Below, piece after piece: positions 8,284 to 21,016 of a stretch of DNA of 31,482 nt; position 1 is the stretch's first letter, and each line of letters opens with the position of its first letter. The position numbers and the translations under genes are program-made. Under the pieces are notes generated by a model. The model saw only the letters and a program-made list of their open reading frames with translations, was not told the origin of the DNA and made no database searches. This stretch comes from Promethearchaeota archaeon (lineage in GTDB: Archaea; Asgardarchaeota; Lokiarchaeia; Sigyniarchaeales; SOKP01): assembly GCA_048938005.1 (NCBI GenBank), contig JBHLMQ010000037.1, forward strand, positions 1 through 31,482, given 5' to 3'.

Positions 8284-9162
8284 TTAAGAAATTTCTTTTA
8301 TTGCTTCTTTTAAGATTGCCAGAATTTTTTCTCGATACATAGGCTCAATAGCAATCATTCCATAAGTTTTAATAACACGTTTTTCGCTGGATAAGATTTT
8401 CTCGCAAAATTCAGGTGTTAGCCTATTTGCTAAATCTTGTTTATTTGCAATACCTATTACAAATTTGTCTTCATAATATTTATCTAATATATCATGAATT
8501 ATTTCTTTTGAATTATTAATATTTTCAAATGTTGAATCTGTAACCAGTAATGTAATATCAGTTCCTTGTAGGAGACTTTTCCATAATGATCTGAATTGAG
8601 CCTGTCCTGCAAAATCCCATAATGTTATAGATCTTTCAAACTCATCACCTTCATAAGAGGCTATATCTGCAGTAATGGTTGGAACATATTCAAGATCTAC
8701 ATCTTTCCCACAGATTAGTTTGGTCAATGTAGTCTTTCCTACACCACCAAAACCTATAATGGATACTTTAATGGCGCCTAAAATAATATGATCTAATTCT
8801 TTTTCAAATTCAGAAAAAACACTACGATTTCCTCCCCACTTATCATTCTTAAGAATTTTACCATATTTATCTATAAATCTAGTTCTTATGCTGAGGATCT
8901 TTGAATTTACCATAGCATCATCATCTTCTAAGTCAGTACAAACTACAATGATTATCGTATCGATTATTGTATAGAAATATTTGAAATCCTCAGTTTGAGT
9001 GCTTTTAATGTCACTTTGGCTAATTTCCTTCATGAAACCTGAAAAAGCACTTAAAAATCCCGCTAATAAATCTCTGTCTACCTCAGAACTTCCGTAATTC
9101 CTAAATAACAATGATTTCCCATCTCTAGTTAATATGTTCACGTATTCAATCAATGATTCCAC
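8284..9162 (-). CDS. Longin-like domain + Arf/Rab-like small GTPase fusion (eukaryotic signature protein)
   Basis: C-terminal half: G1 GFGGVGKTT, G2 YVPT, G3 WDFAGQ, FRSLW, G4 ANKQD. The N-terminal ~128 aa has a longin-type pattern (ILTRDGKSLLFRNY...LLAGFLSAF...IIIVVCTD...FxxFEKELD). Confidence 0.85.
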   Translation of the reverse strand: MESLIEYVNILTRDGKSLLFRNYGSSEVDRDLLAGFLSAFSGFMKEISQSDIKSTQTEDFKYFYTIIDTIIIVVCTDLEDDDAMVNSKILSIRTRFIDKYGKILKNDKWGGNRSVFSEFEKELDHIILGAIKVSIIGFGGVGKTTLTKLICGKDVDLEYVPTITADIASYEGDEFERSITLWDFAGQAQFRSLWKSLLQGTDITLLVTDSTFENINNSKEIIHDILDKYYEDKFVIGIANKQDLANRLTPEFCEKILSSEKRVIKTYGMIAIEPMYREKILAILKEAIKEIS

Positions 9163-10201: not shown

Positions 10202-10780
10202 TTATTCTTCTAATTTTGAAATTAAGGTAAGTTCCGCAATTTTCTGAAAGATTATTGGGACATTTTCCCCTGTTAATGCGGAAGTCTCAAAAAATGGCGC
10301 ATTAATTTTTTCGCTTAAATGTTCAGCCATAGGTAATATAATTTTTCTCTCATCTTTTAAATCTATTTTGTTGCCTATTAAAATACGAGGAATTCCTGAA
10401 AGGCCATATTTAATCGCCGTAGAATACCAATTATTTATGTTACTAAATGAGCTTGAACGCGTGATATCATAGACTAACATCATTCCATCAGCACCGTTAA
10501 AATAAGGTCGATGTAACATATAGAATTGTGGTTGTCCTGCTATATCCCATACCATTAAATTAACTGTGGTTTGCGTACCCATATTATCCTTTATTGTGAC
10601 GGGTTCCTTTGTAATATTTACGCCGACTGTTGGAATGTATTCATATTCGAATTTATCACCACAGAAATTTGTTAAAAGACTAGTTTTGCCAACTGCAGGA
10701 TCCCCGATCACGATAATTTTAAATATCATCTCTGTACGTTCATGAAACACTAATTTTCCTTCTTTTTTATCCTCAGTCAT
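10202..10780 (-). CDS. Rab-like small GTPase
   Basis: G1 GDPAVGKTS, G2 YIPTVG, G3 WDIAGQ, YFNGADG, G4 GNKID, G5 ETSAL; no C-terminal prenylation cysteines. Confidence 0.93.
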   Translation of the reverse strand: MTEDKKEGKLVFHERTEMIFKIIVIGDPAVGKTSLLTNFCGDKFEYEYIPTVGVNITKEPVTIKDNMGTQTTVNLMVWDIAGQPQFYMLHRPYFNGADGMMLVYDITRSSSFSNINNWYSTAIKYGLSGIPRILIGNKIDLKDERKIILPMAEHLSEKINAPFFETSALTGENVPIIFQKIAELTLISKLEE

Positions 10781-17666: not shown

Positions 17667-20027
17667 ATGAATGAACGAATAAAGAAGCTACGAACACAAA
17701 GTCGTGAAGCAATTCCTTATCTTTCTTTAGAACGTGCATTATTATTAACAGAATTTTATGAAACTGGCGCAGCACATAAATATTCTGCCCCAGTTGCTAG
17801 AGCAAAAGCGTTTAAGTATTTAATGGAAAATAAAAAAATTTGTATTAATGAAGGGGAATTAATTGTAGGGGAACGTGGCCCAGAACCCAAAGCAACATCT
17901 ACTTATCCTGAAGTATGTTGCCACAGTTTACAAGATTTAGACATTCTAAATACTCGTGATAAAACTTCCTTTAAAATATCTGAAGATACAAGACAAAAAA
18001 CAAAGGATATTATTATTCCATTTTGGAAAGGAAGATCTATTCGTGATAAAATCTTTTCTCAAGTTGATGATGAATGGATTGATGCATATAAAGCAGGGAT
18101 TTTCACAGAATTTATGGAACAGAGGGCACCTGGACATACTGTTGGAGGGAAAAATTTATGGGAAAAAGGATTTTTAGATTTTAAACGAGAAATAAAAGAA
18201 AACATAGAGAAATTAGACTTTTACAACGATCCTGAAGCATTTAATAAAAGAGAACAGTTATTAGCTATGAATATCGCTGCTGACGCGATAATTAATTTTG
18301 CTGAACGCTATGCTCAAGAAGCCAAATCTCTCGCTATCAATGAATCAGATCCAAAAAGAAAGGAAGAGCTAGAGAAAATATATCAGATATGTTGCCATGT
18401 CCCTGCTCAAGCTCCCAGAACGTTTTGGGAGGCACTCCAACATTATTGGTTCATTCATTTAGGTGTTATAACTGAATTTAATACGTGGGATTCTTTCAAT
18501 CCGGGACGCTTAGATCAACACCTATATCCATTTTATGTCAAGGATGTTGCTAATTGTATATTAACAGAGGAAAAGGCGCATGAATTACTCCAAGCTTTTT
18601 GGGTAAAGTTTAACAACCAACCTGCCCCTCCTAAAGTTGGTGTTACAGCAGAAGAAAGTAATACCTATATTGATTTTTGCAACATTAATATCGGGGGCCT
18701 TAAAGAAGATGGTTCTGATGGAGTAAATGAAATATCTTATATGCTTTTAGATGTAATTGAAGATATGATAATTGTCCAACCAAGTAGTAATGTTCAGATT
18801 AGTAAGAAGACACCAGATAAATTTTTACATCGGGCGCTCGAAATAATCAAAATTGGTTTTGGACAACCATCAGTTTTCAATGCTGACGCAATAGTTCAAG
18901 AATTAACCAGACAAGGTAAATCCATAATAGATGCTCGAAATGGTGGAGCAAGTGGTTGCGTTGAATCTGGTGCTTTTGGAAAAGAAGCTTATATATTAAC
19001 AGGATATTTTAATTTAGTAAAAATCCTTGAAATTACACTTCATAATGGTTTTGATCCCTTAACTAAAAAACAGATTGGATTGAAAACTGGTGATCCTACG
19101 ACTTTTAATACTTTTGAAGATTTTTTTAAAGCTTATACAAGACAAGTTAGACATTTTATAGATATAAAAATTAAAGGAAATCAAATAATTGAACGTATTT
19201 GGGCACAAAATCCCGCTCCTTTCCTTTCTATCTTGATCGATGATTGTATTAAAAATGGGAAGGACTATAATGATGGTGGAGCTAAATATAATACATCTTA
19301 CATTCAAATTGTAGGAATGGGCAGTATAACTGATTGTTTAACTTCTATAAAGTATAATGTATATGATAAAAAAATTATATCTATGGAAGAATTGATAAAA
19401 ATCTTAGATAATAATTTTGAAGGATTTGAGAGTATTCGTCAAAAATTAATCTATAGAACCCCTAAATACGGGAATGACAATGATTATGCGGATTCCATAA
19501 CCACTCAAGTTTTTGATATTGTTTATGATGCAATTAATAATCGCCCTAATACTAAAGGTGGCGTTCATCGAATTAACCTTCTCCCTACAACAGTTCATAT
19601 CTATTTCGGTAAAGTAACGGATGCCACTCCAGATGGACGTAAGGCATACACTCCTCTTTCAGAAGGTATCTCTCCGGTTCAAGGAATGGATATTAATGGC
19701 CCAACTGCTGTTATTAAATCTGCAGCAAAAATTGATCATCTTCGAACAGGAGGAACATTATTGAATCAAAAGTTTACACCTAACTTACTATCAAATGAAG
19801 AGGGGATTACTAAATTAGCACATTTAATAAGAGCATATTTTCAAATGAATGGCCATCATATCCAATTTAATGTGGTCTCAGCAGATACTTTACGGGCTGC
19901 TCAGAAAAGTCCAGAAAAATATAGAAATTTAATTGTGCGAGTTGCAGGATATAGTGACTATTTCGTTAATTTAGGCTCCGATTTACAAGATGAAATTATA
20001 AGAAGAACAGAACATGCTACGATTTGA
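17667..20027 (+). CDS. hypD: Glycyl radical enzyme, trans-4-hydroxy-L-proline dehydratase-like
   Basis: RVAGYS glycyl loop and SGCVE Cys loop. Segments I recall from HypD are present: TYPExCCH, FTEFMEQRAPGHTV, WDxFxPGRLDQ, KFNNQPAPPKVG, ESxTYxDF, EAYxLTGY, LPTTxH. Confidence 0.85.
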   Translation: MNERIKKLRTQSREAIPYLSLERALLLTEFYETGAAHKYSAPVARAKAFKYLMENKKICINEGELIVGERGPEPKATSTYPEVCCHSLQDLDILNTRDKTSFKISEDTRQKTKDIIIPFWKGRSIRDKIFSQVDDEWIDAYKAGIFTEFMEQRAPGHTVGGKNLWEKGFLDFKREIKENIEKLDFYNDPEAFNKREQLLAMNIAADAIINFAERYAQEAKSLAINESDPKRKEELEKIYQICCHVPAQAPRTFWEALQHYWFIHLGVITEFNTWDSFNPGRLDQHLYPFYVKDVANCILTEEKAHELLQAFWVKFNNQPAPPKVGVTAEESNTYIDFCNINIGGLKEDGSDGVNEISYMLLDVIEDMIIVQPSSNVQISKKTPDKFLHRALEIIKIGFGQPSVFNADAIVQELTRQGKSIIDARNGGASGCVESGAFGKEAYILTGYFNLVKILEITLHNGFDPLTKKQIGLKTGDPTTFNTFEDFFKAYTRQVRHFIDIKIKGNQIIERIWAQNPAPFLSILIDDCIKNGKDYNDGGAKYNTSYIQIVGMGSITDCLTSIKYNVYDKKIISMEELIKILDNNFEGFESIRQKLIYRTPKYGNDNDYADSITTQVFDIVYDAINNRPNTKGGVHRINLLPTTVHIYFGKVTDATPDGRKAYTPLSEGISPVQGMDINGPTAVIKSAAKIDHLRTGGTLLNQKFTPNLLSNEEGITKLAHLIRAYFQMNGHHIQFNVVSADTLRAAQKSPEKYRNLIVRVAGYSDYFVNLGSDLQDEIIRRTEHATI

Positions 20028-20127
20028 TACTAAAACTTTTTATCTTTAATATTTAATTTCATTTATTTTTAGAAAAATTTCAAAATCTTCATTTTTAAAG
20101 TTTAAGAGCCTTTTTTTCATAGAAAGA

Positions 20128-20158
20128 AAATATATGTACTTATTCAGTACATATATTT
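20128..20158. promoter_or_regulatory. Operator-like palindrome 1 (perfect 13-bp arms, 5-nt spacer)
   Basis: AAATATATGTACT-tattc-AGTACATATATTT; overlaps the BRE/TATA region. Confidence 0.75.
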
Positions 20159-20163
20159 ATAAA
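20156..20163 (+). promoter_or_regulatory. Archaeal TATA box for the GTPase-RHH gene
   Basis: TTTATAAA, about 70-85 nt upstream of the start codons at 20234/20246. Confidence 0.55.
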
Positions 20164-20179
20164 TGAATATTTCTTTAAT

Positions 20180-20210
20180 AATTATAGGTACTTGATCGGT
20201 ACATATAATT
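20180..20210. promoter_or_regulatory. Operator-like palindrome 2 (11/13 arms, 5-nt spacer)
   Basis: AATTATAGGTACT-tgatc-GGTACATATAATT; same GTAC-N7-GTAC core as palindrome 1; covers the expected transcription start. Confidence 0.7.
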
Positions 20211-20233
20211 CAATATAAAAATAAAAAATTGAG

Positions 20234-21016
20234 TTGATAAACAAAATGAGTAAAGAAAAATTTGAAGATATATTTAAAATTGTAGTTTTTGGAGCATCTG
20301 GCGTTGGTAAAACTACGTTGCTTAAACAATTTTCTGATAAACCTCTCCATGAAGATACAGCTCAAACAGTAGGTGTAGATTTTTTTATTAAAAGTGTAAA
20401 TGTTGATGGAAAGGATTATAAACTTCAGTTTTGGAATATTATTGATGATGAAAAATTTGGATCACTTCAAACACTATATTACACGGGTGCATCAGCAGTC
20501 TTTTTGGTATTTGATTTATCTAGACCAGAAACTTTTGATTATTATCAAACCAATTTTGAAAAAGTCTGGAATCAGATCAAACTAGATAAATGCCCTGTGC
20601 TTTTAATTGGAAATAAACGTGATTTAGTTGAGAATCTGGAAACAATTGATAGGGAAAGATATCGTGAATTTGTTAAAAAAGAAGGTTTATTGGGATATAT
20701 TGAATTAACTTCCATGAATAAGATTGATGATCTAATAAACCATATTCCCATTATTATTCAAAAAGCTCGAAAAAAAAGTTATCAAGTCAAATTTTTAGTA
20801 AATAGTAAAGAATTAGAAGACATTAAAAAATATGCTCGGCTTTCACATCAAAAACAATCTGAATTCATTCGCACAGCAATATGGGAAAAAATTAGACTGA
20901 TAGATGCTCCATCAATTATTAAGAGTAAAAATAAGAAAAAAAATATTGAAGAAAACAAATTAAGTTCAGAGGAATTAAAAAGAATTCGAGAATTATTAGA
21001 AAAGCTAAAACAGTAA
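20234..21016 (+). CDS. Rab-like GTPase (degenerate G3) fused to a predicted ribbon-helix-helix domain and C-terminal coiled coil
   Basis: G1 GASGVGKTT, G2 TVGVDF, YYTGA, G4 GNKRD; G3 reads WNIIDD. Residues 181-222 (KSYQVKFLVNSKELEDIKKYARLSHQKQSEFIRTAIWEKIRL) fit the CopG/Arc RHH pattern. Likely start is ATG 20246. Confidence 0.85.
   Translation: MINKMSKEKFEDIFKIVVFGASGVGKTTLLKQFSDKPLHEDTAQTVGVDFFIKSVNVDGKDYKLQFWNIIDDEKFGSLQTLYYTGASAVFLVFDLSRPETFDYYQTNFEKVWNQIKLDKCPVLLIGNKRDLVENLETIDRERYREFVKKEGLLGYIELTSMNKIDDLINHIPIIIQKARKKSYQVKFLVNSKELEDIKKYARLSHQKQSEFIRTAIWEKIRLIDAPSIIKSKNKKKNIEENKLSSEELKRIRELLEKLKQ

Follow-up and report, generated by a model that had tools for sequence, protein, structure and literature searches.

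A gene on the forward strand of contig JBHLMQ010000037.1, from a Lokiarchaeia-type Asgard archaeon, encodes a protein (hereafter referred to as P0001) in which a Rab-like G domain is followed by a ribbon-helix-helix (RHH) domain and a conserved terminal helix; the whole stretch of DNA analysed, 31,482 nucleotides in length, is hereafter referred to as the window. Two copies of the motif GTAC-N7-GTAC are found on either side of the TATA box of this gene. The conservation of these elements makes it probable that P0001 binds the GTAC operators, and somewhat less so that the effect of binding is repression. The gene probably represents one form of an RHH cassette that represses its own expression and in which the N-terminal domain can be exchanged, other forms of which carry a leucine-rich repeat (LRR) domain, or no domain at all, in the place of the G domain.

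The C-terminal region resembles ribbon-helix-helix dimers

The initial annotation had described the gene as a fusion of Rab-like and RHH domains, and both parts of this description were borne out by profile searches. The G domain matched the Pfam Ras family (residues 11-159, E 9.5e-31, 107 bits versus a cut-off of 21.6), with Rabs as its best relatives in the PDB, and the only profile matches C-terminal to it were to RHH families. For P0001 alone, these matches were weak: DUF6290 (25.8 bits, E 1.4e-4) and NikA-like (21.9 bits, E 1.5e-3), with a cut-off of 27 bits, the RelB antitoxin family of NCBIfam (E 0.002), aCcr1 (E 0.011) and RHH_1 (E 0.051). Individual scans of 21 C-terminal segments, taken from the window and 20 related loci, with the Pfam models (RHH_1 PF01402, NikA-like PF21983 and DUF6290 PF19807) gave matches to DUF6290 (best E 3.9e-7) and to NikA-like (best E 2.8e-8) for all 21, and to RHH_1 for 14.

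In an alignment of 36 sequences, no other part of the protein was as well conserved as the RHH domain. Fourteen residues of this domain (K177, Q180, K182, F183, L184, E189, I193, K194, S205, F207, I208, R209, I212 and W213) were invariant, and V181 and V185 were kept in 34 and 35 of the 36 sequences, respectively. K177, Q180 and K182 are located within the strand or immediately ahead of it, and S205 is found at the start of helix 2. The core side of the strand is formed by V181, F183 and V185, with which Q180 and K182 alternate on the opposite face; in an RHH arrangement, these two polar residues would face away from the core, toward the DNA. The AF2 model obtained with a 36-row alignment comprises the strand YQVKFLV (residues 179-185), two helices (187-199 and 204-219), a disordered stretch and a terminal helix (241-255), and a monomer model of the tail alone reproduced the same helices. 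The strand, the helices and the terminal helix were thus as predicted in the initial annotation, the residue numbers of which are four too high, the start codon being the ATG at 20246 (see below).

The C-terminus had also been expected to model as an RHH dimer, and it did so. Two copies of residues 172-256, modelled with the family alignment, gave ipSAE values of 0.45, 0.45 and 0.44, versus 0.00 for the best of three controls; in the calibration of this score, the same mark was attained by 20 of 30 proteins with structures solved as pairs and by one of 23 with structures solved as single chains. At least 69% of the contacts agreed between runs, with a partner pLDDT of at least 63. The tightest pairs (182:182, 183:181, 184:180 and 185:179, plus helix 207-216 against its mate) describe a symmetric model in which a two-stranded antiparallel ribbon lies over a helical core, the arrangement of RHH proteins. 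As RHH dimers are common among solved structures, this result may be partly memory, and may partly reflect likeness to those dimers; it speaks for likeness, not for binding. All scores obtained for residues 172-256 in the ESM Atlas were between 0.83 and 0.84, below the lead level of 0.9.

Five residues of the terminal helix are invariant (E243, L244, I247, R248 and L251), and the helix lies outside the confident interface of the dimer model. It is retained in the LRR and stand-alone forms described below. Because it is kept without a G domain, it is unlikely to serve as a docking element for that domain, and a dimer-dimer or partner contact would be a more likely function than that of a G-domain latch.

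Twin operators flank the TATA box and are conserved in orthologous promoters

Two related palindromes bracketing a TATA box had been noted in the initial annotation, and a repeat search recovered both, with 13-nt arms (100%) and 12-nt arms (92%) around the sequence TTTATAAA (Table 1). The two operators are copies of each other, 52 nt apart, located 58 and 110 nt upstream of the coding sequence, and they share the core GTAC-N7-GTAC, with box centres 11 bp apart. Operator 1 abuts the TATA box on its upstream side, which is that of the B recognition element (BRE): TTTATAAA starts five bases past operator 1, the second GTAC box of which ends at 20150. With the usual archaeal spacing, transcription would start near 20186, at the edge of operator 2.

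Thirty related loci were returned, 23 of which (L009-L031) contained a full or nearly full orthologue together with upstream DNA; L032-L038, which were 5'-cut, partial or paralogous, were kept out of the operator counts. The expectation that orthologues would keep the palindromes was confirmed, and the sites proved to be co-conserved with the gene. Operator 1 had an exact GTAC-N7-GTAC core at all 23 orthologous loci (24 of 24 with the window) and operator 2 at 22 of them (23 of 24 with the window), the exception, L009, having one mismatch. The start-to-start spacing of the operators, window included, was 52 nt in 14 promoters, 53 nt in six, 54 nt in two and 49 nt in one. L017 and L019 were identical in both upstream DNA and protein, and L019 was left out of the 23-promoter alignment; alignment A2 excludes L019 for the same reason, and also L021 and L030, which are cut by contig ends. 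In the 23-promoter alignment, the proteins of which are 38-87% identical, the block comprising the two operators and the TATA box between them was invariant or nearly so, whereas the flanks varied freely. The GTAC arms never changed and the spacers varied within limits (wTATTCr and ATrATCr), and this invariance of the arms while the spacers vary points to a protein site rather than an RNA stem.

The genome (3.72 Mb, 29.8% G+C, 95% complete) contains eight GTAC-N7-GTAC sites, versus about seven expected, and two of them are the operators described here; GTAC pairs were not in excess at spacings of 3-13. A weight matrix derived from 43 sites in other genomes (excluding the window, and leaving out L019) gave 34.0 bits of a possible 35.5 for both operators, 12.2 bits for the next genomic site and 19-21 bits for two shuffled genomes. 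A wider regulon in the organism's own genome was rejected, as neither the exact motif nor the weight-matrix scan gave any further site. On the basis of these scans, the gene's own promoter appears to be the only target in the genome, and P0001 would act here as an autoregulator, not as a regulator of other genes.

GTAC itself is about two-fold under-represented genome-wide (5102 occurrences versus approximately 10,000 expected from base composition), which may reflect restriction-site avoidance. A second conserved element is located at 20091-20118 of the window, 20-45 nt upstream of operator 1 (consensus approximately TTTTAAAG-TTAGGAG-TTTTTT). It is kept in the 23 aligned promoters, even with a different upstream gene, and may represent another TATA-like promoter, the T-tract of a terminator or a binding site for a different factor. 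A scan for bacterial-type signals gave five promoter-like sites, versus 7.7 expected, and no terminators, a result that is uninformative for an archaeon.

The operators co-occur with the cassette in one GTDB family

With the C-terminal profile (E≤1e-8), 51 of 400 genomes of the phylum gave a match: 49 of 134 in the same GTDB family (plus the window genome), the single genome (1/1) of a second family of the same order, and none of 265 elsewhere. Within the genus of the window, 34 of 53 genomes matched. A search with the whole protein gave 28 of 400, an undercount, as it scored only six of the approximately 70 GTPase candidates in each genome. In GTDB terms, the proteins are limited to essentially a single family, rather than being spread across the Asgard archaea. 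The labels given by submitters (Hod-, Hermod-, Thor- and Odinarchaeota, and Thermoplasmatales) disagree with GTDB, according to which nearly all of these genomes belong to one genus or family; the taxonomy used here follows GTDB, and no spread across Asgard phyla is claimed.

The twin pattern, defined as two GTAC-N7-GTAC sites 33-41 nt apart, was found in 30 of 135 family genomes, once in each, and the reversed control pattern in none of the 135. Twenty-nine of the 30 twin patterns were at the RHH-module locus, including that of G225, in which the sites are on another contig, the gene being split by the assembly; the thirtieth, that of G152, is G+C-rich and seems to be unrelated. The twin pattern was absent from all 85 genomes lacking a module match, and its exact form was present in 28 of the 35 whose module match was strong (E≤1e-20). 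Among the seven genomes without the exact pattern, G206 (same contig as L009) differs by one mismatch, G199 and G155 have contigs that stop at the gene, the spacing is 58 nt in G180, 37 nt in G205 and 40 nt in G210, and G215 has a single exact site. Some copies of the gene are interrupted: L032 (labelled Odinarchaeota) loses the frame just before the RHH strand, and the matches in G199 (C171) and G264 (C48) contain stop codons. These copies are pseudogenes or assembly errors.

The same cassette and operators occur without the G domain

A profile search of 1.84 billion representatives identified the cassette in 51 clusters at E≤1e-3, and in 22 at E≤1e-10. Three architectures were distinguished: Ras-RHH (e.g. 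P0021 and P0056), LRR-RHH, in proteins of 425-459 residues (e.g. P0075, P0113 and P0114), and the cassette alone, in short proteins (e.g. P0104, P0107, P0110 and P0117). A linker motif preceding the cassettes of the short forms was also found in Rab forms of 317 residues and in LRR forms. Within the same genus, the LRR-RHH gene occupies the position of the Rab-RHH gene, downstream of the same PFL-like glycyl-radical enzyme gene, and no genome had two strong copies of the cassette, indicating that the forms replace one another.

Twin GTAC-N7-GTAC sites also flank the TATA box ahead of LRR-RHH genes (L065, L066, L068, L071 and L073; L069 has variant flanks) and are likewise found ahead of the stand-alone forms L070 and L072; L077, from another genus, has a single perfect ATATGTAC-N7-GTACATAT site. 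In genus g2, a Rab-linker-RHH gene of 356 residues follows a short-chain dehydrogenase gene, and the TATA box ahead of this pair is bracketed by twin sites, one of which contains a mismatch. L078, from the second GTDB family (G130), is a stand-alone relative with an N-terminal RHH domain; five GTAC boxes with an exact 11-bp period lie between its TATA-like box and its ATG (711-758, within 688-797). The RHH domain is the sole element common to every case with GTAC sites. Because the same cassette and operators occur behind an LRR domain, or without any N-terminal domain, the RHH domain and the GTAC operator appear to be a cognate pair, with a unit site of one GTAC box per helical turn, and the G domain would be an exchangeable add-on module. 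A conserved open reading frame of 46-57 codons is found between the sites and the LRR-RHH gene at several loci (L065, at 293-436, L066, L067/L074, L068 and L071); it had no Pfam or PADLOC match.

The G domain retains nucleotide-binding motifs

In addition to its Pfam Ras match, the G domain of P0001 matched the NCBIfam model TIGR00231 (small_GTP; 67 bits versus a cut-off of 42.5), with weaker, overlapping Pfam matches to Roc and Arf. The nearest solved sequences were all Rabs (Rab2B, Sec4, Rab2A, Rab11A and Rab1), with E values of 7e-27 to 1e-23, the best being approximately 1e-26 over residues 5-176. Columns N, K and D of the NKxD motif were kept in 34, 30 and 34 of the 36 aligned sequences, respectively; P0001 has the exact motif (N123-K124-x-D126). 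In the P-loop, GxxxxGK[ST], G16, G21 and K22 were invariant and T/S23 was kept in 35 of 36. The G domain of the family probably binds guanine nucleotide, this capacity being most likely retained because the P-loop and NKxD are kept. The stretch corresponding to the Rab WDTAGQE reads WNIIDDE in P0001. The switch I threonine was present only in P0001 (T41), this column otherwise containing lysine (29), arginine (3) or isoleucine (3). The cysteine motif for Rab prenylation is not present: P0001 ends in EKLKQ and has no cysteine in its last 80 residues.

The genome holds 55 matches to the G domain at E≤0.01, some in open frames of 520-1128 codons, and two further matches lie within the window, on the reverse strand (8401-8772 and 10343-10741). 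In another protein, P0071 (419 residues), an ArsR/MarR-type winged helix (HTH_5, E 1.4e-5, above the Pfam cut-off) is found C-terminal to a Ras domain, and fusions of GTPases to DNA-binding domains may have arisen more than once in these archaea.

Proposed mechanism and alternative interpretations

RHH proteins bind DNA as dimers of dimers and commonly autorepress. In the mechanism that we propose, the RHH domain of P0001 would dimerise through its antiparallel beta-ribbon, and one dimer would occupy each GTAC box, itself palindromic, fitting the two-fold symmetry of the ribbon. Two dimers, 11 bp or one helical turn apart, would fill each GTAC-N7-GTAC operator. Protein on operator 1 would lie at the BRE side of the TATA box and protein on operator 2 over the predicted start, and the occupied operators would block TFB/TBP and RNA polymerase, resulting in negative autoregulation. 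The Rab-like domain would be exchangeable in such a system, with sister genomes carrying an LRR domain, or nothing, before the same cassette at the same locus.

Several observations weigh against self-repression by an RHH cassette. The Pfam RHH matches of P0001 alone fall just below the curated cut-offs, and the C-terminal profile gave no match to PDB sequences at E≤10. A Foldseek search with the C-terminal monomer model gave no match at E≤0.001 and 25 at E≤10; its top ranks were nearly all RHH proteins (AtaR, VapB, AmrZ, Rv0298, MazE6, TacA, KacA and PutA), with every E value above 1, and thus provide consistency only. The gene is absent from many near-complete genomes of the same genus, including three that are 99-100% complete, and is therefore accessory. 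The LRR locus of G215 has only one exact operator, and the operator spacing outside the Rab-type genes is variable (37, 40, 50-51, 53 and 58 nt); DNA looping, for which the 52-54 nt spacing of approximately five turns had been considered, was rejected as a general feature on account of these other spacings. Finally, a regulator whose only target is itself does not explain the cellular role of the protein, to which the neighbouring genes offer no clue.

A one-component switch, the model of the initial annotation, in which the nucleotide state or a partner of the G domain would alter the oligomerisation or DNA affinity of the RHH domain, the promoter then reporting a cellular signal, is a tentative possibility that we judge rather doubtful. 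The covalent fusion is kept in approximately 60 relatives, and the retention of the P-loop in 35 of 36 sequences and of an exact NKxD in 30 of 36 suggests that nucleotide binding is under selection. The swapping of input domains (Rab-like, LRR or none) on one DNA-binding cassette is the usual one-component pattern, and in genus g2, where the operators precede both the dehydrogenase and the Rab-RHH gene, more than the regulator would be controlled. A classical GTP/GDP switch is nevertheless difficult to reconcile with the absence, from all 36 sequences, of the DxxG glycine (the column contains 19 D, 8 N, 3 A, 3 H and 3 S) and of the catalytic glutamine (13 D, 12 N and 11 E), and with the presence of the switch I threonine in a single sequence; the family probably lacks the residues coupling the gamma-phosphate to both switches and catalysing hydrolysis. 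Moreover, the linker between the G domain and the RHH domain differs greatly in length in the 36-sequence alignment (0 to about 60 residues), proteins without the G domain still have the terminal helix, and the AF2 monomer has no confident contact between the G domain and the RHH domain. The stronger proposal, that this would be the first small-GTPase transcription factor, the nucleotide or partner state of a Rab-like domain gating an RHH domain on a GTAC operator within a modular Rab/LRR-input cassette of Lokiarchaeia-type Asgard archaea, is in our opinion unlikely.

The assignment of the operators to P0001 itself was also weighed against other explanations. The cassette layout (RHH, disordered linker and conserved helix) is that of RHH antitoxins, AtaR, VapB, TacA and KacA are among the top Foldseek ranks, and there is the weak NCBIfam RelB match; the RHH domain might then serve, for example, in antitoxin-like protein binding, with the operators bound by another, unlinked transcription factor. 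This is very improbable, given that the twin sites are found only in genomes with the module, once per genome and at the module locus, and that they accompany the cassette in all three architectures and also in other genera. No toxin-like partner gene adjoins the Rab-RHH gene among the neighbouring genes examined, and PADLOC gave a single weak candidate-family match for P0001 (PDC-M37B, E 1.6e-7). The RHH centromere-binding proteins of plasmid partition have their sites upstream of their own operon, and the GTAC array, unique in each genome, might likewise be an anchor tethering the GTPase or LRR protein to one chromosomal place, where the N-terminal domain, of a protein-interaction type in both cases, would recruit a partner. 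The single site per genome and the repetition of the boxes in an 11-bp register, up to five in L078, would fit such a function, which we nevertheless consider very improbable: the boxes always flank or follow the TATA box directly ahead of the gene, for which autoregulation is a full explanation, the gene is dispensable in many close relatives, and none of the neighbouring genes examined encodes a partner NTPase. Finally, each operator could fold as a hairpin, but the interpretation of the palindromes as hairpins in an RNA leader, or as remnants of mobile elements, is scarcely credible. Operator 1 is located 5' of the TATA box, the arms show neither variation nor compensatory changes while the loops vary, a search of Rfam with 19950-20300 gave no match at E≤1, and there is a single copy per genome, with no dispersed copies.

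Relationship to known regulators and GTPases

The predicted DNA-binding part of P0001 resembles the repressors Arc, MetJ and CopG in its strand-helix-helix of about 43 residues, predicted to form an antiparallel-ribbon dimer with polar Q and K on the ribbon, and in its operators, composed of short boxes one helical turn apart in its own promoter. It differs from them in that the RHH domain is C-terminal to a G domain of 170 residues and is followed by a conserved extra helix, and in that the sequence matches of P0001 alone are weak, with no solved relative found by sequence in a profile search of the PDB. NikR combines an RHH domain with a nickel-binding domain, and PutA with a proline-catabolic enzyme. 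As in these proteins, the RHH domain would be the DNA-reading head of a larger protein, the other domain of which gives signal or activity; the RHH domain of NikR and PutA is N-terminal and its partner binds metal or substrate, whereas that of P0001 is C-terminal and its partner is a Ras-superfamily G domain (LRR in sister genomes). The succession of RHH domain, flexible linker and conserved helix is shared with RHH antitoxins (RelB, ParD, AtaR, TacA and VapB classes), as is the autoregulated promoter, predicted for P0001, and such proteins account for some of the weak profile matches (RelB and DUF6290) and top Foldseek ranks. Unlike these antitoxins, the cassette has no adjoining toxin gene and is fused behind large domains.

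The proteins of the RGK family (Gem/Rad) and pseudo-GTPases keep their nucleotide-binding motifs without conserving the DxxG glycine and the switch I threonine; they are eukaryotic and are not known to bind DNA. The resemblance of the P0001 family to these proteins in such features suggests that nucleotide binding could be uncoupled from the classical spring-loaded change. P0001 shares the P-loop, NKxD and a Rab-like TVGVDF stretch with Rab2, Sec4, Rab11 and Rab1, and with Thor-Rab (PMC10933270). It differs from Rabs in that WDTAGQE is replaced, in its family, by W[DN]-I/F-I-D/N-D/N/E, lysine takes the place of the switch I threonine in 29 of 36 sequences, and a predicted DNA-binding tail is present instead of a prenylation cysteine. 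A parallel of another kind is a purely functional analogy: ParB-type CTPase switches, according to the part of PMC12704722 consulted, also join a nucleotide-binding module to a sequence-specific DNA-binding module with very few chromosomal sites, but they differ in fold (ParB/Srx versus Ras), DNA-binding domain (helix-turn-helix versus RHH) and nucleotide.

RHH autoregulators with a fused second domain are already known; a Ras-superfamily domain in that role, and its exchange with an LRR domain, were not found in print. Full-text literature searches gave no description of a Ras/Rab-RHH or LRR-RHH fusion, although supplementary tables might list such architectures, in agreement with the initial annotation, which knew of no characterised Rab-RHH fusion. 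Nor did term searches reveal any such fusion in PMC10933270, PMC11529989 or bioRxiv 10.1101/2024.02.28.582541, the first of which mentions GTPases joined to "various domains of unknown function".

Almost no Ras-superfamily gene of the Asgard archaea has a known job, despite the presence of dozens per genome (55 matches here), and the Rab-RHH family offers a concrete output that can be tested. Its candidate 23-bp operator is known to the base and conserved across relatives, and the Rab, LRR and no-domain variants on one cassette constitute natural controls. To our knowledge, there are as yet few archaeal promoters for which the operator is defined and the logic of repression is clear. Rab-like and LRR domains are also two building blocks of ROCO-type signalling proteins. 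If the GTPase did gate the RHH domain, the expanded GTPase repertoire of Asgard archaea would be tied directly to gene control rather than to membranes; even with a passive G domain, a new RHH clade is defined, together with its GTAC box and 11-bp register.

Gene structure and genomic context

The coordinates of the features are given in Table 1. The open frame was listed as 20234..21016 (260 codons), beginning with the TTG at 20234, and the start was placed at ATG 20246 on the basis of the orthologue alignment and the Shine-Dalgarno-like sequence, because the orthologues start with MSKEK, 8-10 bases 3' of GAGGTGA, and the TTG of the window falls within the corresponding GAGTTGA. P0001 has approximately 60 full-length relatives (37-86% identity), and proteins of this type are named "Rab family GTPase" or "GTP-binding protein" in public records.

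Table 1. Features of the Rab-RHH gene, its promoter and the upstream gene (window coordinates)
Feature	Position	Strand	Basis
PFL-like glycyl-radical enzyme, upstream of the Rab-RHH gene	17667-20027	+	Pfam PFL-like E 8e-224, Gly_radical E 5e-38
Operator 1: perfect 13-nt inverted arms 20128-20140/20146-20158; GTAC boxes 20136-20139 and 20147-20150	20128..20158	.	Repeat search
TATA box TTTATAAA, between the operators	20156..20163	+	Read from the sequence; conserved among 23 aligned promoters
Operator 2: 12-nt arms 20180-20191/20199-20210, 92% complementary; GTAC boxes 20188-20191 and 20199-20202	20180..20210	.	Repeat search
Shine-Dalgarno-like GAGTTGA, aligning to GAGGTGA of orthologues; contains TTG 20234	20231..20237	+	Promoter alignment
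Coding sequence, 256 aa + stop (P0001)	20246..21016	+	Open reading frame listing, translation, relatives
Rab-like G domain, residues 9-176	20270..20773	+	Pfam, NCBIfam, PDB sequence relatives, AF2 pLDDT 70-91
Predicted ribbon-helix-helix domain, residues 177-219	20774..20902	+	Profiles, AF2, dimer model, alignment
Lysine/serine-rich variable linker, residues 220-238, predicted disordered	20903..20959	+	Alignment, pLDDT below 50
Amphipathic C-terminal helix, conserved, residues 239-255	20960..21010	+	Alignment, AF2

A role for P0001 in a defence system was considered and rejected, the PADLOC and PHROGs libraries giving nothing solid: the LRR form, the stand-alone form and the small open reading frame had no match in PADLOC, and PHROGs gave a single weak match to a "transcriptional repressor" (E 0.0054). 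The gene is monocistronic in the window. Its neighbourhood encodes an AMP-binding enzyme, the glycyl-radical enzyme, a steroid-reductase-like protein, a HAD hydrolase and an acyltransferase; the downstream neighbour is the convergent gene for the steroid-dehydrogenase-like (steroid-reductase-like) protein, a membrane protein. The same PFL-like gene lies upstream in most of the Rab-type, LRR-type and stand-alone loci.

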